Below are positions 1 through 51,532 of a stretch of 64,000 nt of DNA, piece by piece (within the stretch, counting starts at the first letter, position 1; each line of letters starts with the position of its first letter). The notes beneath the pieces are model-generated. The model saw only the letters and a list, made by a program, of their open reading frames with translations. It had not been told where the DNA came from and searched no databases. Source of the stretch: Acidobacteriota bacterium (GTDB lineage: Bacteria; Acidobacteriota; UBA6911); NCBI GenBank assembly GCA_963664705.1, contig OY761556.1, positions 1,888,001 through 1,952,000 of the forward strand. The letters are read 5' to 3'. A program made the translations under genes and the position numbers.

Positions 1-618
1 GCGCAGAGGGACAAAAATGGAAAATACATTGCCCTGGCTGGGACGCAGGGAGAACTCCCCGAGCATGCCTTCAGATAGAATTTTTCCGCACTTCAGGCGA
101 ATGGTTCTTCCGGCGGTATCGCGGCGGCCGTACAGCCACTCCTTCGGAATTGCCTGCTGGGTCTCCACCCGTAACAAAAGTCCATCGCCCGGGCGGAGTC
201 CCAGCTGATTCGCCAGGGATTCCCCTACCAGGGCGGTCTGCCCGTCGGCTGATTCCGGGAGTGGCAATCCGTTCAATTTCCAGAAGCGCTCATCAATGCC
301 ATAGACATTCACATTGTGTGCGCGGACCTGGGTTGCTTCCTGAGCCAGAACTCCCTTAAGAAATATGATTGGACTGGTATGGAAATTCGGGCCGAGCTTA
401 TTGGCGAGATCTTCACCAAAAAAACTGGCGGATGAAACGATGTAGTCGACGGACCCGATCCTCTGGTATAGGAGTTGCCGCAGGCTGTCCCGAACGGACT
501 GGCCTACAAGGAGGGCACCCGTGAGAACGGCCACTGCTACGGCGATGCCGAGAAGGATGGCAATATTTGTTCTCCAGAAAAAAACCAGGTTTCGCAAAAT
601 CAGTTTTCTGGTTTTCAT
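1..618 (-). CDS. ABC transporter permease (FtsX/MacB-like), N-terminal part; runs off the left edge
   Basis: Not in the ORF track. Manual translation from ATG at 618 gives MKTRKLILRNLVFFWRTNIAILLGIAVAVAVLTGALLVGQSVRDSLRQL, typical of an FtsX-like permease start. It lies directly downstream of an ABC ATPase. Confidence 0.85.
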   Translation of the reverse strand, partial: MKTRKLILRNLVFFWRTNIAILLGIAVAVAVLTGALLVGQSVRDSLRQLLYQRIGSVDYIVSSASFFGEDLANKLGPNFHTSPIIFLKGVLAQEATQVRAHNVNVYGIDERFWKLNGLPLPESADGQTALVGESLANQLGLRPGDGLLLRVETQQAIPKEWLYGRRDTAGRTIRLKCGKILSEGMLGEFSLRPSQGNVFSIFVPLR

Positions 619-41569: not shown

Positions 41570-41614
41570 TTTCGCTCGTTGCCCGAGGCTTATGGGCAAC
41601 AGCCTCGTTAGAAT

Positions 41615-41690
41615 GGGCCGTTAGCTCAGTCGGCAGAGCATCTGCCTTTTAAGCAGAGGGTCGTTGGTTCGAGTCCAACACGGCTCATCA
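41615..41690 (+). tRNA. tRNA-Lys (TTT); 3' end encoded as TCA rather than CCA
   Basis: Acceptor GGGCCGT/ACGGCTC, D-arm GCTC/GAGC, anticodon stem TCTGC/GCAGA with loop CTTTTAA, T-loop GTTCGAG. Confidence 0.96.
41646..41690 (+). repeat. attL core (45 bp, 3' half of tRNA-Lys)
   Basis: CTTTTAAGCAGAGGGTCGTTGGTTCGAGTCCAACACGGCTCATCA, identical to 51488-51532. Confidence 0.95.
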
Positions 41691-41866: not shown

Positions 41867-44110
41867 TCACTCAACACCAAAAACAGCATTGCGTTGAACT
41901 ATTTGATTCGACCTGCTTTCTTTGACGGTGACACGCAATTCATAGATGCCTGGATCCAAACTGCTGAGATCCATATCATCGTGAACCTCAAACCATCCTT
42001 TGCTATCGACCTTTGTCTCGTCCTCGAAGATTGCAAGCCAAGGCTCAGCCTTGACCGCCTTTCCTCCCTTTAGCAACTCACGCATGAACACTATTTCCGC
42101 ATCCTGTGAGGTAGTCTTTCCTGGATGTATGCGGAAGGAATATTCGCAGAATATGTCTCGCCCATATAAAGGGATCCCTTGGGCTATTTTGATTTGCTCA
42201 AGGTCCCTCTTATCATCTTCACCTAACTCAGAATTCTTATTAAGTGGATTTCGTAAGATAATGCTGCTCATGTCAAATTTTTGATTCTCAGGCTCTCGTA
42301 CGTCAACCCAGGCGGTGGCGGTACCAAATTTATCGGTTCCTTCTTCCCGAATCCCGATGCGTGCTTGATAAACGCCCGGTTTAAGAAGCAGCCTTCGCGA
42401 AAAACGGTATCCATTATTCTCGGCTTGCGACACACGTTCTGGCGTCAGTTTCCCGTTCACGGTTGCTGAGATCGCTTCCACCTGCTTAGATTCAGCATCA
42501 TAGATATAGCTAATAATTTCAAATCCGATATTTGCAGTCTGCCTTTGTTCCGTTTGTGTGGATTTGTACCCTTCAAAATCGATTGTCAGGGTCACATTCT
42601 TGTCATCGGACTGGTTTGTCATGAACTCTGATGTTGCCGAAACATTCAATTGATTTAGAGAGTATCCAGCATTAATGGAATTAATTAGGCGTTGATGCGG
42701 CGAAATTACAGCCTCACTTTCAGATTTGCTTTTTAACGCAGAGGGATAGAACCCGCGGGCCGTTTGGACCGCATATTCGGGATGATTTCGAACCCGCAAC
42801 CTTATTTTTCTGAATTTTTGACCGTTGTCGTTGGCTTGCAAATAATAGGCAAGAACATAGTAGTACCGATTTGCGTCTAGAGCCTCATCAACCAATCGAT
42901 CAATGTTATTCGTTGCACCAAACAGTTTTCCGCCAGTTTCCTGTGCAATTTGCGAGAGTCCATTCAATTCTTCGCGTTCGGATAAGCTCATAATCCTATT
43001 TATTTGTCCAGGGTCTGGTGCCTCGCAACGAGGCTCTGTTGTGCCATTACAATTTGTTTCGACGCTATCTGGGGTAGAAGACGATCTATTCTTTCCTGCG
43101 TCAACAGTTGGTGGAATCTGTAGGCCCTTCGCATCAATGGCATAGACCGCCACTCCTGATTTTACAGCGAGGTCGATAATCGGTCGAAGTTGATCAGAAT
43201 GAGTACCGGAGTCGTTGTCATAAAGGGTAAACCCGTCCGAAAAGATGATTATCATCTTTTTCCCCGGCAGATTGATCATTTGTTCTGAAAAATCCCTAAT
43301 AGCAGAAACGGTACTTTTGCGATAAAAGGATTGTTCGGAAAGCACCTGCAAAGCTCTATTGCGTGCAAGCGTCCGTAGCATGCAGCAGTCCCTGAGGTTT
43401 TGCTCACCCCTTATAAGATCTATCGCTAGTCTGTAGTCATCCACTTGGTTTGCAAGAACTCCGGCTGCCAGGAGAGGCGTAAATGCTTTTTCAGAGCCGA
43501 TTGGACCTAGACGAATTTGCTCAATAGCATAATTGAGCAGTTTTTTATCTTGCGTAAACTGCTGGGCGATTCCGAGGGTCTGACCGCTGGTTGCTATTGC
43601 AGCCATGTCTCGGTCAGTCATCCTAACAGATGTGAAATGTCTCAGAGCTTCCTTCACGCGATTGAGACTTGAGATTGATAAATGCAGAGTATCAACAAAA
43701 AGTAACGTACTCCTGTCGGGAGTTTGGCTCTGCTCTTTTTGTGTGACATGGCCCAAGCGCGGTTCATTTTCAACGCTACCTTGCTTTTTTTGATTATCAT
43801 CCAGCCTGGAGATGTTAAAGAAACTGATCTCCTGCGGTTTTTCATCTTCATATAACTCAAAGTCTTCCTTTTTGAGATTTTCAACCACATGGCCTGAACG
43901 ATCCAGAACAACTGTACGCAACTGCATAAGTTCTGTTTTGGTCTTGATCAGCAACCCTTCTTGCTTCTCTATGGAGCCGTTCTGTGCTGCCGTCTCCCTG
44001 GTTTCATATTGCATAGCTACAAAAAGTGCTAAACCCAGAGTACAGAGGATACGATAGTTGATCACACTCTTTCCCCTCCAAAGAAAACAACTTGCGGCAA
44101 CGCAGTTCAA
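41867..44110 (-). CDS. Large VWFA-related Acidobacterial-type protein (element cargo)
   Basis: VLDRSGHVVENLKKEDFELYEDEKPQEI, FVDTLHLS, FSDGF, AVYAIDAKGL, YYVLAYY, C-terminal Ig-like PGIYELRV; start probably near 44065. Confidence 0.85.
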   Translation of the reverse strand: MNCVAASCFLWRGKSVINYRILCTLGLALFVAMQYETRETAAQNGSIEKQEGLLIKTKTELMQLRTVVLDRSGHVVENLKKEDFELYEDEKPQEISFFNISRLDDNQKKQGSVENEPRLGHVTQKEQSQTPDRSTLLFVDTLHLSISSLNRVKEALRHFTSVRMTDRDMAAIATSGQTLGIAQQFTQDKKLLNYAIEQIRLGPIGSEKAFTPLLAAGVLANQVDDYRLAIDLIRGEQNLRDCCMLRTLARNRALQVLSEQSFYRKSTVSAIRDFSEQMINLPGKKMIIIFSDGFTLYDNDSGTHSDQLRPIIDLAVKSGVAVYAIDAKGLQIPPTVDAGKNRSSSTPDSVETNCNGTTEPRCEAPDPGQINRIMSLSEREELNGLSQIAQETGGKLFGATNNIDRLVDEALDANRYYYVLAYYLQANDNGQKFRKIRLRVRNHPEYAVQTARGFYPSALKSKSESEAVISPHQRLINSINAGYSLNQLNVSATSEFMTNQSDDKNVTLTIDFEGYKSTQTEQRQTANIGFEIISYIYDAESKQVEAISATVNGKLTPERVSQAENNGYRFSRRLLLKPGVYQARIGIREEGTDKFGTATAWVDVREPENQKFDMSSIILRNPLNKNSELGEDDKRDLEQIKIAQGIPLYGRDIFCEYSFRIHPGKTTSQDAEIVFMRELLKGGKAVKAEPWLAIFEDETKVDSKGWFEVHDDMDLSSLDPGIYELRVTVKESRSNQIVQRNAVFGVE

Positions 44111-44185
44111 AGCTTAGAGTATTCTTAAATTGAGATTCAAAAGACAAGCTGTAAGTTCAAAGAAACTCAAAAAGGGGGATATAAA

Positions 44186-45160
44186 ATGTTTGTCAAATCA
44201 AGCATGTGCTTGTTTTTCTTTATCATGCTTATTTGTCAGCTTGTTATGACGAATGCCCCTGCACAAAACCTGCCAACCGGTAACCTTTCGCGGCTTTCGC
44301 AAGCTCGAGCATTGACCGCTCCTGAAAAACAAATGCAGGTGCTTCCTAAAGATAAGACCGTTGTCGACATGGATTCTAAAGAGTTGCACCGATATTTCCC
44401 GTCCGAGCTCCGACGAGTAACCTTCGACCTGAACCAGGACGTATTAAGCTCAATAATGGAAAAAACGGGAGAATGCGTGCAAGCGTTCTTCAAAGATTTT
44501 GCAAACACATCCTCAAAAGAGGCTGTTTACCTGGAAAAGCCGGGGAATAGCGGCAGCACTAGTCGTGAATTCAGCTACTTGATTGTTTATCATCCTGATG
44601 CGAACAAGCCATTACTTGAGGAATATAGGACCGATAAACAAAATCATCCGATTGCTCAGAAGGCACTAAAAGATGTTTTTATAACGTCCGGTTACTTGGG
44701 ACTCAGTTTAAATTTTCATCCTGCGTATCAGCAATATTCTCGTTTCAGGTATTTGGGAACTCAGGCATCCGATCCTCATGCTCTTATCATTGCCTTTGCC
44801 CAGAAGCCAGAAATGAGAGATCTGCAAATCGAATACACTGATACCAATACTGGAAACAGGTTCCGTCTTCCAATACAGGGAATTGCATGGATAGATCCAA
44901 GCTCTTTTCAAATATTGCGTTTGCGCACAAACCTCCTGGGCATGGGAAATCAATCCTTCATTTCGGAACAAAGCACCGATATTAAGCTCGGCGCAGTCCG
45001 CTTTGAGGAAAATCAGAAGCAGTTATGGCTACCACGCGAAGTTATGGTTATGACTCAAATCTCCGGTTATGTTTTTCGAAATCAGCACCGCTATTCTGAC
45101 TACAAATTGTTTGCTGTTGATAGCGACTTCACAATTGACAAGACAAAGCCAGGCAAATAG
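44186..45160 (+). CDS. Hypothetical exported protein (element cargo)
   Basis: Signal peptide; GIAWIDPSSFQILRLRT, LWLPREV, HRYSDYKLF resemble Acidobacterial exported beta-proteins. Confidence 0.8.
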   Translation: MFVKSSMCLFFFIMLICQLVMTNAPAQNLPTGNLSRLSQARALTAPEKQMQVLPKDKTVVDMDSKELHRYFPSELRRVTFDLNQDVLSSIMEKTGECVQAFFKDFANTSSKEAVYLEKPGNSGSTSREFSYLIVYHPDANKPLLEEYRTDKQNHPIAQKALKDVFITSGYLGLSLNFHPAYQQYSRFRYLGTQASDPHALIIAFAQKPEMRDLQIEYTDTNTGNRFRLPIQGIAWIDPSSFQILRLRTNLLGMGNQSFISEQSTDIKLGAVRFEENQKQLWLPREVMVMTQISGYVFRNQHRYSDYKLFAVDSDFTIDKTKPGK

Positions 45161-45209: not shown

Positions 45210-46316
45210 TCATCTAGACATTGAAAAGGCATCCAGACGCACTGCTGCATCCCTGAGATCGCCCTCGGACACGATGTTGTATCTCTCAAACACGGATCTT
45301 GTTTTGTGGCCGGTCATCTTCATCGCAACTCCTTCCGGCACTCCTGCTCTGACTAGGTTTCGGACAGCTGTCCTCCGGAAGTCATGCACCAGGCGGCCGG
45401 GGACTCCCGCCGCTTTGCACGCAGCTTCCCAGCTATGTTTGAAGTCGACGAATGGTCTGCCTTTCCGAACCCCTTTGGTATAGAAGAAGACCCAAGGCGT
45501 GATGATCCCTTTTTCCTTGAGGCCATCTGCCCGAGTCCTCTGCAGATTCAAGACGGCCTCGAGTTCATCAGTGAAAGGGAAGACTCGTCCCTTCCGGTTT
45601 TTTGTGGTGCCGACATCTAGGATTACGACCCGTGCCTCGAAATCGACCTGGCGCCACTGCAGTTTGAGGATCTCATTCTTGCGCCATCCGGTGACATAGG
45701 CAAACCTTGCCACCGGCTCAATGCGGCTGCGAACCTCTTTGCCGCCGCTAACATCAGGAAGATGCTTTAGGACGGCTTGGAACTGGTCAAGTTCGAAAAA
45801 ACCGGTCCTCACGTTGTCCTCCTTGAGCATGGTTATGTGAGGCCGGTCCGAGACTATGCGTTTCTGGATGCCAAGGGAGAAGGCGCGCTTGATCGTAGCT
45901 AGTTCGCGATTGATGCTTGCATTGCTGGATCCCTCTTCTCTCCGCTGCAGGATGTAGTCGTCAATGGTGGTCTCGGTGATCTGCGTGACCTTCATCTTCC
46001 CAAAGAATGGAATAATGTGAAGCCTATGCCGCAACTCAATGTCAGCAGCAGACCGATAGCCATTCAGTTCGTAGTCCTTCTCGACGAGCGAAGCCAGTTC
46101 AGAGAATATGACCTTGCGCTCAAGGCTCTTTGTCGGACGTCGCTTCGTCGCCTCTCCCTCACGTTGCTTCAAGTACTCTTTTGCTTCCGCGTAGTCTGCC
46201 GTCCCCGCAGTCTCGCGGATGACGCGACCGTGTGAGTAGTACTTGATCCACCATATGGCCAAAGTCCGCTTTTTGCCATCCTTGTCTTTGAATGTTCGTC
46301 TGAACACACTTCCCAC
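45210..46316 (-). CDS. Tyrosine recombinase/integrase
   Basis: Catalytic set intact: TGWRKNE, TKN, HDFRRT, TGH, ERY; GTG 46316 with AAGGAG RBS (ORF opens at 46394). Confidence 0.95.
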   Translation of the reverse strand: MGSVFRRTFKDKDGKKRTLAIWWIKYYSHGRVIRETAGTADYAEAKEYLKQREGEATKRRPTKSLERKVIFSELASLVEKDYELNGYRSAADIELRHRLHIIPFFGKMKVTQITETTIDDYILQRREEGSSNASINRELATIKRAFSLGIQKRIVSDRPHITMLKEDNVRTGFFELDQFQAVLKHLPDVSGGKEVRSRIEPVARFAYVTGWRKNEILKLQWRQVDFEARVVILDVGTTKNRKGRVFPFTDELEAVLNLQRTRADGLKEKGIITPWVFFYTKGVRKGRPFVDFKHSWEAACKAAGVPGRLVHDFRRTAVRNLVRAGVPEGVAMKMTGHKTRSVFERYNIVSEGDLRDAAVRLDAFSMSR

Positions 46317-46407
46317 GTGGGTCTCCTTTATTTTCAAGGTGGATTTAATGGGATTCGATATTAGAATCGAGGGAGCCATGTTTCCTTCCACCAAGGAGTC
46401 ATGGTTA

Positions 46408-46707
46408 GGGGCTCACCTGGCGCTCAGAACGCCAAGTAGCCCCGTAGCGCGAATTATGTCGTGTTGCTTTCTGCAAACCTGCTCTAAAACGGCCCAGGGC
46501 GCGTGAAGTCCCGAGGGCAGTGGCGGGCCAACTCGTAGAATTGACCCGCCCGTTGCAGGGTTCCTGCTCTGCACAGTCGGCGCATGGCTGAATGCGATCG
46601 CCGAAGCCGCATCTGGGATCGTCCCGCCCCAACATCGGAAAGAACGGAACACCGCCCAGCCCGGAAGAACATCTGTGGCGGACCCCGATGTGTCGTCGGA
46701 GCCCGCC
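46408..46707 (-). ncRNA. Candidate structured RNA between the capsid and integrase genes
   Basis: At least four hairpins (46408-46443, 46522-46550, 46591-46613, 46677-46707) whose irregular pairs are G-U on the minus strand; one has a C(UUCG)G tetraloop. Confidence 0.5.
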
Positions 46708-46720
46708 TTGGGCACTTTTC

Positions 46721-48034
46721 TTATCGCTTGCCGAGGACCACGCACCAACTGAGCGAGTCGCCATTTTTCGGAGTTATCGCAGCGTTCCACGTTCCTTTGC
46801 CGTCAACCCGCATGATCGCGCGATAGGCCTTTTGGTCCTGTTGCCAGCCAACATGTATTGAGGTATCGAGCGTGACCTCGCGCCGCATGCCGACTGCGTA
46901 CTGGGTAAAGTCGACCAGCGCGATATCGCCCTCAGAACCGAGCGCAGGCGCCTTCTCCGTGAAAACACAGGGCCTCGTCAGGATTGAGAATTGACCATTG
47001 CTTTGCGAGAGAACCGGAACAGGCGCACCGGCATCTCCGATCACTTGATAAAGCTGGAGCAGCTGCGGGATACACGTTGAGTTCGCGAGCCAGATGCTGT
47101 TGGCCAGGCACTGCGGAGCAAGTCTGGCAAACATCTTGGTGAGATTGATGTAGTTGATGGTTGCGGCATTTTGATTCTGCTCTTTCGCGACGACAATTCG
47201 CGCCGGATCGCGGAGTGCGCCAAGCGGCTGGCCGGCTCCGGATCCGTTCAAAAAGCTATGATCAAGAGCCCAGCCGAGGGTTTTGGTCATTGCGGCATTG
47301 ATCTGAGCCTCGAAGCCCAGGCCATCCTGAACCAGCTCATTGGACGCGCGGCAGAACGCGGCCAACTTGTTCGCCTTCAGGCCGAGCAGGAGGAGTTTCC
47401 CGGTGACGTCAGCAGCCTCGCCGTTCTCGGGCAACCACTGCGCTGATATTCCGCCGAACAGGGAATTCGAATGGTCTTTGCTGTCCCATCCCGGGATCTT
47501 CTTGGTGTCGGACGTCATGGGCCAAATCTGGCATCGCGATCTAACGATTTCGTCCTCGAGCGACGAGTCGAGCCAGGTTGCGCTCAATTCTTACGGAACG
47601 GCATAGCCACCCAAAGCGTCATTGCCTTCCTGTTGAACTGATGCTTGGATAAGCCGCTCGTCAAATCTGCCAGAACTGACGGCCGCCAGGAACTCATTCC
47701 CATCGCGGAATGCGGATCCCCTGATCGTGCCGAACATTGCGGAGAACGTGCGTCCCGTAGCCGGACCCTTAAACTCCTGGCTCAGATCGACCTTGTAGAA
47801 GTGGCCGTTGACGTCCTGCCGGTACTTGACCACGGGAGTTGCTTGGCGTTCGCGTTCCATCTCCTCCTCCCACGCAGTGATTGCCTCCTCATTCCGGGCT
47901 CGCGCCGCGTGCAGCTCGTCGATCTTCGCCTTCTGGTCGGCGGTGAGCGTTTCGCCCGCGCCTGCGAGAATCTGGGAGATCTGATTTTTAATGACAAGAC
48001 GCCGTTGTCTTAGGTCCTTGATGTTTGCCGTCAT
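46721..48034 (-). pseudogene. HK97-fold phage major capsid protein interrupted by one in-frame TAA (47591-47593)
   Basis: The 147-aa and 288-aa ORFs are in frame: ...LGGYAVP*ELSATWLD...; motifs WLPENGE, FLNGSGAGQPLG, GDIALVDFTQY, AYRAIMRVDG; N-terminal coiled-coil delta-like domain. Confidence 0.88.
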
Positions 48035-48244
48035 AACTAAGTCCTTTCACGCCCGCATAGGCATATTTATATATTGTGAGTTGTTGGATTTATCACTGCG
48101 TGGCGGGCGGACAGGTCTCAACGGAGCCTGTGCCAGTCGTTGCACTCGGGCAGATCGTGGCGTCTACGGACCCACTCGCTGCGAGTGCCTTAAGCTGTGC
48201 TTATCCTAACATAAGAATAAATTCTAATTGAACTATAAAATGTA

Positions 48245-48841: not shown

Positions 48842-49044
48842 GGATCGTCTACGGGATCGTCTGCGCTTATATAGAAAAGCATCATAGACAGTCGATTGGA
48901 CGTTACACTTCGTTCCACGTCCATATCGCCTCTCTGTACCCGGCTGATAGTCAATAGATGTAAAAGGCAGTTCAGACGATTTAGTCATTGTAAAGACTCA
49001 TGTTGGATTCGATTGTCTGAAGCCTCTCGGACACCTCAGACGGT
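48842..49044. repeat. Iteron-like cluster (putative replication origin)
   Basis: Six AGAC(G/A)(A/G)T copies in both orientations near TATATA (48868-48873), at the helicase 3' end. Confidence 0.55.
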
Positions 49045-50534
49045 ATGATGCGATACTGCGTCGCCGATCCTTTACCCTTCCTCTCAACCTTTCCAGCATC
49101 GAACAGCCCGGAGAGATGCTTCGCTACCGTAGCCCGTGCAAGCCCTGTGCCCATCGAAATTTCCTTTGGCTGTGCCCAGGAACCGGAAACAAGAGCGAGC
49201 GCGTCCAGCACCTTCTCCTTGTTCTTGTCACCCACGATCTTCATGTTCTTGGCGATTCGCTCGACGTCACCGGCCCATGTGAACTTCGGTCTGCCGGATC
49301 CCTTGGGTGACATGTCAACGAAAAAACTCGGCCGGTCGTCGATGTCCTTGTTCTCGGAATAGACATGGAGCCGTCCCTCCTGCGGGGTTCTCGCAAGGCA
49401 GATCATGAAATCGGCGCAACCATATTTGCCGATGCTGCCCTTGAGGTCGAACGGGTTTGGTTCCTGGCTATCACGCCCGAGGTTCTTGCCGATAGGCTTG
49501 CGGGTGTGGTCGACGCACAGAATCGTTACGCCCAGGTCCCGGTTGACCTCCTCCAGGATGGAAACCATCTTCGCCATGTCTTTCGCGTTCGACTCGTCGA
49601 GGTCCGGAATCATGCGGTTCAGCACGTCGAGGATCAGGAAGTCGAACCCGTTGTCCCGTACCTGGCTCTTCAGCCAGGCCAGGTGCGCGGCATCAGTCAG
49701 GTTCATCCGTTCGCGGACGAGGAAACGAAGTCGGCCTTCGGATGGATAAGGCAGGAGATCTCCATACCCTTTCGTGATTTCCTCAGCACGCTCCTTGAGC
49801 CTATAGACAGGATCTTCGCGAGCTATATAGAGGACACGAGAAGAAGTGACGACATACTTGCCCAGCCAGAGGCGCTGCTGCCGAGGCTGCGCCAGATGAA
49901 ATGCGGCGTCCTCGGCGAGCAGGCTCTTGCCGGTCTTCGGCGCCGCGCTTAGGAACCCTATGCTGCGTTTGGGGACCAGTGGTTCGATTGCCCAATCCGG
50001 AGGAGAGGTGGGCATGGACTTGAGACTTGATGCGTCCAATAGCTGCCAGGAGATTTCCTTGCCTCGGAAAGCTGTGGCCTCGGCGAGCGACTTCGCCAGC
50101 GCCGCCTTCGCTATTTCAACGGAACCGGTCCCACCGATAACTGCCTGAATAAAGGCATTCGCATCTGTGACAGCCCGCCGCATCTGCGCGAGTCGGACAA
50201 CTCGTTCAGCATAGACTCCCACGGCCATTGCGCGTGCTACGCCGTCCGTAAGGCTTACCAGCATTGCAGCCCCGCCGACCCGTTCAAGATCGCCGGTGTC
50301 CTGCAGGTCGGACTTGACCGTCACAAGATCGATTGGGATCCCGGCGCTGGCAAGCCTGAGCATGCTCTTAAGCACAAGCCGAAGAGGCTCCTGATAGAGA
50401 TCAGAGAAGTCGAGCCCGGTGCTCAGAGCCTCTTCCATCTTCTCTGGGGCGACGAGTATCCCGCCGATCAGGCTGCGCTCGGTTTCAGGATCATGAGGGA
50501 GTAGACCGGTGACGGCAGAGTGGGCAGTCGTCAT
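48981..50534 (-). CDS. Replicative helicase: DnaB N-terminal domain + AAA_25/RepA-like ATPase + wHTH
   Basis: PHDPETERSLIGGIL...PIDLVTV...LERVGG (DnaB_N); AAPKTGKS; LILDVL; DHTRK; DLKGS; C-terminal HTH. Confidence 0.88.
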   Translation of the reverse strand: MTTAHSAVTGLLPHDPETERSLIGGILVAPEKMEEALSTGLDFSDLYQEPLRLVLKSMLRLASAGIPIDLVTVKSDLQDTGDLERVGGAAMLVSLTDGVARAMAVGVYAERVVRLAQMRRAVTDANAFIQAVIGGTGSVEIAKAALAKSLAEATAFRGKEISWQLLDASSLKSMPTSPPDWAIEPLVPKRSIGFLSAAPKTGKSLLAEDAAFHLAQPRQQRLWLGKYVVTSSRVLYIAREDPVYRLKERAEEITKGYGDLLPYPSEGRLRFLVRERMNLTDAAHLAWLKSQVRDNGFDFLILDVLNRMIPDLDESNAKDMAKMVSILEEVNRDLGVTILCVDHTRKPIGKNLGRDSQEPNPFDLKGSIGKYGCADFMICLARTPQEGRLHVYSENKDIDDRPSFFVDMSPKGSGRPKFTWAGDVERIAKNMKIVGDKNKEKVLDALALVSGSWAQPKEISMGTGLARATVAKHLSGLFDAGKVERKGKGSATQYRIIPSEVSERLQTIESNMSLYND

Positions 50535-50824
50535 CGGGCCCCCTGCTCAGCTTTAAGCCGTTCGATCAGCTTGTCGCAATCCTCGCGATCAATGAGGAGT
50601 TTGTTCATGGTCCGTTGGCGAGGCCTCGCAATGACCGTCTTGTTCTCACCGCGAATTTTGGCACCGGGCAGTTTGACCGGAGTGAGGATCCCGTCTGCAA
50701 TGTAGTCGCGCACCGACTGCTCGCCTACTGAGAGATAGGCTGCAGCCAAGTGGATGTCCAGCAGCCGCGGCCACGTCAGCATCGTCAAGCCGGCACGGGA
50801 AGATCGGCCGAGACGATCATTCAT
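50531..50824 (-). CDS. Excisionase-like HTH (HTH_17/AlpA-like)
   Basis: RLLDIHLAAAYLSVGEQSVRDYIADGIL..., LIDREDCDKLIE; GGAGG RBS; ATGA-coupled to the helicase. Confidence 0.8.
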   Translation of the reverse strand: MNDRLGRSSRAGLTMLTWPRLLDIHLAAAYLSVGEQSVRDYIADGILTPVKLPGAKIRGENKTVIARPRQRTMNKLLIDREDCDKLIERLKAEQGAR

Positions 50825-51050
50825 GGGAACCCTCCCGGAAGAGTTCCGGAAATAAAAACTGGGGATCCGCACTCAGAACCTTGCAGATCTTCTGCGCTTG
50901 TTCATGGGTGGGAAGGGCGCGGCCGGTCTCGAAATAGGAGATATCCGGCTGCTTGAGGCGCACGGCTCGTGCGAGCTGGGACTGGTCTAGTCCCTGCATG
51001 ACTCTTGCTGCACGGAGTCTACGGTTTATCGTAGAACACTGCTTCTTCAT
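50817..51050 (-). CDS. XRE/Cro-family HTH regulator
   Basis: LRAARVMQGLDQSQLARAVRLKQPDISYFETG. Confidence 0.85.
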   Translation of the reverse strand: MKKQCSTINRRLRAARVMQGLDQSQLARAVRLKQPDISYFETGRALPTHEQAQKICKVLSADPQFLFPELFREGSHE

Positions 51051-51487: not shown

Positions 51488-51532
51488 CTTTTAAGCAGAG
51501 GGTCGTTGGTTCGAGTCCAACACGGCTCATCA
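51488..51532 (+). repeat. attR core (45-bp duplicate of the tRNA-Lys 3' half)
   Basis: Exact copy of 41646-41690; the tRNA 5' half is absent. Confidence 0.95.

Follow-up and report, generated by a model that had tools for sequence, protein, structure and literature searches.

A predicted antisense RNA module at the integrase start of a capsid-bearing island in Acidobacteriota

The island and its genes

The window, i.e., the whole stretch of 64,000 nt of acidobacterial DNA analyzed here (its genome is designated G000), carries an island of 9,842 bp with an exact 45-nt direct repeat at both ends, and the features assigned to it are listed in Table 1. The genes on the minus strand are an HTH regulator gene, an excisionase-like gene, a DnaB-N/AAA_25 helicase gene, an HK97-fold capsid gene and, behind a spacer, a tyrosine integrase gene. 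The cargo between the integrase gene and the att site (3.5 kb) is lower in GC, and its 747-aa and 324-aa ORFs (41867-45160) have no Pfam match. In several relatives the tRNA gene lies immediately beside the integrase gene, unlike the cargo-separated layout of the window island. Portal, terminase and tail genes were not detected in the island by ORF and family scans, and two short ORFs, of 73 and 89 aa, are without family. Judged by this gene content (att flanks, integrase, xis-like gene, repressor, helicase and capsid), the island is classified as a capsid-only phage satellite. According to the available text of two reports, a lone HK97-fold capsid gene is known in a satellite, SaPIbov5 Ccm (PMC5052747), and portal-less HK97-fold mini genomes of about 9 kb with an integrase are known as well (PMC13669383); the window island resembles these in carrying integrase, excisionase-like, repressor and helicase genes and a lone HK97-fold capsid gene within less than 10 kb, but differs in that its capsid gene is broken and that no cos site or helper was identified in the island.

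The closest relatives of the capsid are 65–67% identical and those of the integrase protein 62–70%, and the named relatives of the integrase are from Acidobacteria. The capsid gene is interrupted by an in-frame TAA, which showed no difference in contigs of four runs from one sample (this sample may be the window's own source), and capsid homologues are mostly continuous, with 400–490 aa. The TAA lies close to the point where an N-terminal helical, delta-like portion gives way to the HK97 fold; an in-frame TTG follows at 47587. The pieces could be separate scaffold-like and shell proteins, but simple decay is likelier because the homologues are mostly unsplit. The end of the integrase (45210-45230) is without the basic C-terminal tail found in homologues, and this, together with the broken capsid gene, indicates that the island may be decaying. 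A prophage in the same genome (L007, C1:2563000-2583000) encodes a capsid 34% identical to that of the island, and terminase-like, portal-like, protease-like and tail genes could be read from its ORF sequences; this prophage is a candidate helper for the island. Capsid matches in genomes of the same genus are full prophages.

Table 1. Features of the island and of the spacer between its capsid and integrase genes (positions in the window)
Feature	Position	Strand	Basis and remarks
tRNA-Lys TTT gene	41614..41689	+	tRNA search
att repeat	41646..41690	+	3' part of tRNA-Lys TTT; 45-nt exact direct repeat
Tyrosine integrase	45210..46316	-	PF00589 E 1e-20; homologues begin MGS at GTG 46316
Leader of 21 codons in frame with and fused to the integrase	46317..46379	-	frame check
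RepX/SymR/FinP-like two-hairpin module over the integrase RBS (mRNA side)	46354..46448	-	R1 38.7 bits; RF00043 38.1 bits
Predicted antisense -10 box TAGAAT, inside the reading frame at AUG+13..18	46362..46367	+	AnnnTA family position; sequence match
Predicted ~73-nt cis-antisense RNA, two stem-loops	46374..~46446	+	5' end from SymR geometry; 3' end uncertain
Module hairpin SL1, over SD GGAAGGA (46389-46383) and AUG (46379-46377)	46376..46404	-	MFE
Module hairpin SL2 (last long stem of the sequence-only reading)	46408..46443	-	MFE and family covariation; divergent in the window
5-bp and 13-bp hairpins	46522..46567	-	z -5.68 minus, -2.19 plus for 46522-46570 (segment picked around the stems)
UUCG hairpin of the sequence-only reading	46591..46613	-	weak; z -0.08 for 46575-46640, not significant
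Hairpin of 12 bp, 13 nt behind the capsid stop	46677..46707	-	MFE of minus strand; no U tract
HK97-fold major capsid gene, interrupted	46721..48034	-	family scans; in-frame TAA at 47593-47591
HTH regulator, excisionase-like HTH_17 gene, DnaB-N + AAA_25 helicase	48981..51050	-	ORF list and family scans
Second att repeat	51488..51532	+	45-nt exact direct repeat

The spacer behind the capsid gene had been described in a sequence-only reading as one structured, strand-biased RNA of about 300 nt (46408-46707), on the strand of the capsid operon. Because homologous integrases start at GTG 46316, the non-coding spacer amounts to about 400 nt and is longer than that reading assumed. This GTG has its own SD, and pairing probabilities predict that the GTG and most of this SD are paired. 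The spacer sequence is identical in run X5 of another study, which has no coverage of the capsid stop, and this identical copy gives no covariation.

A two-hairpin module with relatives in many genomes

A scan of the spacer against Rfam gave nothing at the gathering level; at E<=10 only a partial P17 match (E 0.46) and RF00043 (R1162 antisense RNA) were obtained. The latter is a full-length match at 46444-46372 with E 4.9e-5, but its 38.1 bits do not reach the gathering score of 55 bits. It spans the last stem of the sequence-only reading and a further hairpin with an SD and an AUG; that stem is half of a two-hairpin module continuing to 46354, 54 nt past the end previously noted, so that the boundaries of the unit had to be redrawn. 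In the class to which the window's genome belongs, sub-threshold RF00043 matches were found in 14 of 137 genomes, with none of the 137 over the cut-off and none in 14 control genomes; the stricter filters of this class scan missed G000.

The 22 RF00043 matches and the regions upstream of related integrases have one common layout, consisting of a hairpin, C-T-R-A-C-C-A, a hairpin over the SD and ATGGCT, and then AnnnTA. Model R1 was made from 20 of these 22 matches, leaving out two atypical ones (L317 and L318) and not including the window; its training was seeded by RF00043 and its E-values are rough. In the window, R1 matches 46448-46354 of the minus strand with E 7.5e-10, which is the best site in the 64 kb, and the next unrelated site scores 8.6 bits. 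When the 20 training sequences were aligned with MAFFT, 15 of 21 pairs were found to change on both sides, on a consensus structure set by hand from the same sequences; none of 500 shuffles reached the observed values, and slid controls brought the covariation score down to a quarter or less. On the 56 model-aligned matches the number rises to 18 of 21 pairs. Within the spacer, covariation is present for the family of the 3' module, and the 5' part is without homologues among 201 capsid-relative loci and the 137 class genomes.

Model R1 finds the module at E<=1e-4 in 59 of the 137 class genomes (training genomes included) and in 8 of 121 genomes sampled across the phylum, 4 of these 8 being outside the class; G000 has five sites. 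Upstream of related integrases in the class genomes it is present in 7 of 29 cases, on the integrase strand, and absent from the other 22, and a search of 42 viral integrase loci found it in none. In a set of 95 loci, mostly of capsid genes, there are three matches, none of them directly behind the capsid gene.

In the window, fold prediction for the mRNA strand gives an unpaired probability of at most 0.03 for five of the seven SD bases and at most 0.01 for the AUG. The AUG at 46379 is in frame with the integrase gene, 21 codons ahead of its GTG. Two other arrangements were found in the family: in six copies (L271, L362, L295, L329, L351 and L321) a separate leader of 25–38 aa ends within 10 nt of the integrase start, and in two (L354 and L207) the module AUG directly opens an integrase. 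In L207 (2095-5563) a capsid gene is followed by 1.4 kb, the module (50.6 bits) and the integrase starting from the module AUG, which is the nearest parallel to the window layout. The targets are not restricted to integrases: when 55 ORFs downstream of the module, taken from some 85 distinct candidates, were scanned, 11 matched tyrosine-integrase families, 7 resolvase, 6 RadC and 4 ArdC families.

Strand of the RNA and its predicted promoter

Stem cells on the mRNA strand, counted over 51 non-redundant copies of the 56, comprise 947 Watson-Crick pairs, 86 A·C, 4 G·U and 21 others, and in the 34 copies outside the training by id, A·C exceeds G·U by 57 to 1 (one of the 34, L335, is at the same place as training row L314). 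Because an A·C on the mRNA strand is a G·U on the antisense strand, the fold of the family is kept on the antisense strand. A second sign is the motif AnnnTA, or TAnnnT on the antisense strand, which occurs at AUG+13 or +14 in 49 of the 51 copies; a T at AUG+6 is found in 50 of the 51. The window has ATTCTA in the mRNA sense at AUG+13. There is no consensus -35 sequence for the antisense promoter on the plus strand of the window, and the TAGAAT promoter was not called by a promoter scan, which also misses the symR promoter. Both signs, the wobble direction of the family and the fixed -10 box inside the reading frame, are the grounds on which the opposite-strand reading was adopted: the module likely makes a plus-strand antisense RNA of about 73 nt that represses integrase translation.

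The predicted RNA (46374-46446) folds with -35.7 kcal/mol and has GUUA at the stem-loop junction, and 46372-46452 of the plus strand has z -3.44. For the module as a whole the folding is equally good on both strands (z -4.22 on minus and -4.37 on plus). SL2 is likely the 3' terminator-side hairpin of the predicted antisense RNA. In five copies (L219, L221, L223, L299 and L300) both hairpins and the AnnnTA box have been kept and the AUG has been lost; these copies suggest, as far as can be read from their sequences, that the antisense RNA and not the leader is what is conserved.

The strand bias claimed in the sequence-only reading therefore has to be divided. It stands for the three long stems of the window copy, which have six G·U on the minus strand, but not for the module, where SL1 has two A·C on that strand, the z values of both strands are alike and the family favours the antisense strand.

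Comparison with known antisense RNAs

RepX is a 75-nt RNA of two stem-loops, antisense to the repA RBS, with linker GUUA and about 50% identity to FinP; the study of RepX, in its available text, found 24 sequences resembling RepX, of which five were unique (PMC8136791). R1 picks repA of pRSF1010 with 54 bits, but since the training set grew out of RF00043 matches, there is some circularity in this. The window module resembles RepX and RF00043 in having two stem-loops that cover the RBS and AUG of a gene on a mobile element, a length of about 75 nt, the GUUA linker, the start context ATGGCT and the AnnnTA box inside the reading frame. Many module copies follow a small repressor gene, just as repA follows gene F. 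The differences are that the target in the window is the tyrosine integrase of a capsid island and not repA of an IncQ replicon, that the 38.1 bits are below the 55-bit cut-off, and that no repressor gene is upstream of the window copy.

SymR is a 77-nt cis-antisense RNA that starts opposite the 6th base of symE from a promoter within the coding sequence, and the change of CATTCT to CACTCC in symE abolishes SymR, according to the available part of the report (PMC1891008). R1 matches symE with 24 bits (E 1e-6), SymR not being in the training, and symE has ATTCTA at +14; the window likewise has the ATTCTA/TAGAAT box inside the coding sequence. In the window no symE-like gene or LexA control was seen, however, and the target is an integrase. 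R1 also matches traJ of pSLT with 19.4 bits (E 8e-4), and FinP too was not in the training. FinP/traJ (RF00107) is similar as a two-stem-loop antisense RNA to a translation start, and two copies of the family have sub-threshold RF00107 matches on their antisense strand, but RF00107 has no match in the window.

In five genomes including G000, RF01809 (symR) had no match at E<=1, and neither RF02221 (sRNA-Xcc1) nor RF01760 (traJ-II) was found. With respect to the features of this class of RNAs, the window module has two stem-loops that are complementary, in the gene they overlap, to the SD and the start codon, and an antisense -10 box at fixed spacing in the first codons (a sequence match only, with no -35); selection on the antisense strand is seen in the family and is mixed in the window copy, SL1 favouring the antisense and SL2 the mRNA strand. 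Judged from these features, the module appears to work like RepX and SymR but falls outside RF00043, RF01809, RF02221 and RF01760. The titles and abstract openings of the literature searched describe no broad RepX/SymR/FinP family and no integrase control by one. One paper (PMC2864571) cites, in its available text, the R1162 paper, and the supplements of it that were searched do not name the module motif.

Proposed mechanism, and the possibility of a relic

The 300-nt unit is a composite of capsid-side hairpins followed by the 95-base module. We think it reasonably probable that the last 95 bases of the spacer are an antisense module that blocks integrase translation, and that the first 260 bases are no more than a structured 3' end, of an ordinary kind, on the capsid message. 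By analogy with RepX, SymR and FinP, RNA polymerase would use a promoter located within the integrase reading frame and begin plus-strand transcription near 46374, and the two-stem-loop antisense RNA, presumably constitutive as in these systems, would pair with the mirror-image leader of the mRNA and keep ribosomes off the AUG. On the mRNA, the SD and AUG as well as the downstream GTG start are predicted to be paired. Integrase, in the long form or in the GTG form by coupling, would then be made only when the mRNA outruns the antisense RNA, and such an excess of mRNA might arise, for instance, through induction or when the island enters a cell still free of antisense RNA; a burst on entry is a role suggested by the gene set. 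The replication-capsid transcript could run through without integrase being made. The sequence-only reading was thus right to take the spacer as non-coding and structured, and it is likely right that the spacer uncouples the integrase from the upstream operon.

The window copy departs from the family in several points. A sense sigma-70 promoter within 300 nt accompanies 28 of the 56 copies, vs 3 in control stretches, and no such promoter is present within 300 nt for the window mRNA. Ribbon-helix-helix or ParG families were found in 13 of the 28 upstream ORFs scanned for other copies (28 of 42 were scanned), and the window has no ribbon-helix-helix gene upstream of the module. Lacking both its own sense promoter and this gene, the window integrase is probably expressed from a message of the upstream operon.

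The main alternative is that the window copy is a relic or acts on the mRNA only: the antisense RNA would be lost or weak, and SL1 alone would damp integrase translation, or the spacer would be drifting along with the broken capsid gene. The copy ranks 54th of 56 by score, the flank is TACG where 42 of the 56 copies carry AGCG, and the two U·G pairs of SL2 on the mRNA strand, which are A·C in the antisense RNA, favour the mRNA strand. The nonsense codon of the capsid gene and the missing integrase tail point in the same direction, and the SD and AUG are already paired without antisense RNA in the predicted fold. On the other hand, TAGAAT is intact, as are the spacing of 12 nt and the T at +6; the two A·C of SL1 on the mRNA strand pair only on the antisense strand, and folding of the module is as good on the plus strand as on the minus. 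We accordingly regard a relic as unlikely, though as the most serious competitor of an active antisense module.

Folding of the spacer and the proposal of a single RNA

The folding of the whole region (46408-46707) was examined by comparing its MFE with those of 200 shuffles per strand. It is better than expected on the minus strand (z -4.20, none of 200 shuffles as good); the contrast between strands is only partial, the plus strand being also low (z -2.80, 1 of 200 shuffles). Most of the stems listed in the sequence-only reading are present in the minus-strand MFE: the 12-bp stem 46707-46677 (10 Watson-Crick pairs and 2 G·U), GCAGG/CCUGC at 46567-46555, the 13-bp stem 46550-46522 (11 Watson-Crick pairs and 2 G·U), the UUGC-AGAAA-GCAA hairpin at 46476-46464 and the long stem 46443-46408 with its 2 U·G. 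The exception is the hairpin with a C(UUCG)G tetraloop at 46613-46591, for which the MFE gives a 5-nt loop on 2 bp. Among GC-matched 260-nt non-coding stretches behind long host ORFs (167 of 309 candidates were folded, with 12 shuffles each), 19 of 167 reach z -4.2 and 37 of 167 match or exceed the z -2.44 of the region without the module; the folding alone is therefore not exceptional.

These results bear on whether the spacer can be taken as one RNA of about 300 nt from the capsid strand, an attenuator or processed regulator like P4 CI that uncouples the integrase. The better minus-strand folding (z -4.2 vs -2.8), the six G·U in three long stems and the absence of a coding frame agree with it, but the long-range pairs that would join the hairpins into one RNA differ between the MFE and the centroid structures, only the 3' module has homologues and covariation, and this part reads as antisense; the 5' part alone has a z of a kind common in the host genome. 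P4 CI is processed from a sense leader and acts through premature termination by means of short target sites. The likeness to P4 CI and C4 RNAs consists in a small structured RNA taking part in life-cycle control of a satellite; the evidence in the window points instead to an opposite-strand RNA acting on translation, no Rfam family of the C4 type matches 46300-46800 at E<=10, and no U-tailed terminator was called on the minus strand of the spacer by a terminator scan. A single sense RNA of the P4 CI type is thus quite improbable, and the other role suggested for it, in capsid assembly, finds no support; the conserved features of the module point to an RNA of the opposite strand acting on translation initiation. 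Inverted repeats between the spacer and the rest of the island are chance-like.

The 5' part behind the capsid gene

The remaining 260 nt are probably a structured 3' UTR of the capsid message. Their z of -2.44 on the minus strand is carried by two hairpins. The first, of 12 bp, is a probable 3' stabilizer of the mRNA or a weak terminator. A hairpin of at least 10 bp starting within 45 nt of the stop was found behind the capsid genes of 27 of 87 relatives (non-redundant, at least 44% identity, full C-terminus, from 200 loci) vs 75 of 500 host ORFs, so the first hairpin is a common feature behind capsid genes. Searches for the sequence itself gave nothing of note: the best other match of the whole spacer in G000 by blastn had E 0.73, the best in 201 capsid-relative loci by blastn and nhmmer E 1.2, and the best upstream of related integrases E 1.4; plasmid and phage collections gave only matches of 23–34 nt at E>=0.04. 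The 5' part has, in the 137 class genomes outside G000, four matches of 29–37 nt, all in unrelated contexts, and local alignment, run for both strands against 152 non-redundant regions downstream of capsid genes, had a gappy top match. No integrase was detected less than 896 nt behind the capsid gene among the 201 capsid-relative loci; found separately, L214 (G115:C144) has a capsid gene followed by an integrase gene, with a 70-nt spacer carrying one GGCGGG...CCCGCC hairpin and no module.

The 13-bp hairpin and the first hairpin share GGCGGG...CCGCCAC ends, and CCGCCAC occurs on the minus strand at 46681 and 46526, the ends of these strong hairpins, and at 48106 just before the capsid gene, against a genome rate of 0.09 per kb. 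This recurrence raises the question of whether both hairpins (46707-46677 and 46550-46522) are operators or packaging signals, as RNA or DNA, for the capsid protein or a helper terminase. The hairpin of L214 between capsid and integrase genes would fit, and so would the island's having no portal or terminase gene, the packaging of such elements being an open matter in the available text of PMC13669383. But CCGCCAC is not enriched behind other capsid genes (2 times on the coding strand vs 13 times on the other, counting the 300 nt that follow the capsid in each of 200 loci), the 5' part folds weakly as ssDNA (z -1.15 and -0.66), and capsid genes are commonly followed by strong hairpins whose sequences are unrelated, which makes operators or packaging signals very improbable. 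Least of all is the spacer likely to be a coding frame or a decayed gene: open frames of 119 and 125 aa overlapping the capsid end do exist on the minus strand, but the 119-aa ORF has no protein homologue at E<=0.01, the two longest minus-strand spacer ORFs have no Pfam or PHROG match, and a six-frame tblastn search of all loci yielded nothing beyond short matches at E>=0.002, in keeping with the non-coding character first ascribed to the spacer.

Wider occurrence and meaning

A broader interpretation, which we put forward tentatively and hold to be possible rather than probable, is that RepX, SymR and FinP are three members of one large unrecognized family of start-codon antisense RNAs on integrative elements and satellites, which gates establishment genes and allows their burst on entry, the window being the case of a satellite integrase. 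If this is true, the module, often located behind a ribbon-helix-helix repressor gene, would gate integrases, resolvases, ArdC anti-restriction proteins and RadC/JAB proteins, with a burst when a new host is entered, shut off as the stable RNA accumulates, and in the window it would let the capsid operon run into the integrase gene without integrase production. Three loci, of plasmids or a toxin, have already made this class of mechanism known. The new point would be its reach, to 59 of 137 class genomes and 4 genomes among those sampled from the phylum's other classes, before integrases, resolvases, ArdC and RadC genes; wherever RF00043 was applied, all cases stayed below the Rfam cut-off, which none of 137 genomes exceeded. 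The family would then provide many natural variants for the study of two-stem-loop antisense RNAs, and a single -10 box would bear on the timing of integrase by islands.

The window's own genome has further copies, at 1044678, 1547704 and 2125987, and a much stronger one of 70 bits (L329, G000:C1:5692608-5692702), where a ribbon-helix-helix gene is followed by the module, a 25-aa leader and an integrase-family gene; the RNA of this copy could cross-talk with the copy in the window.
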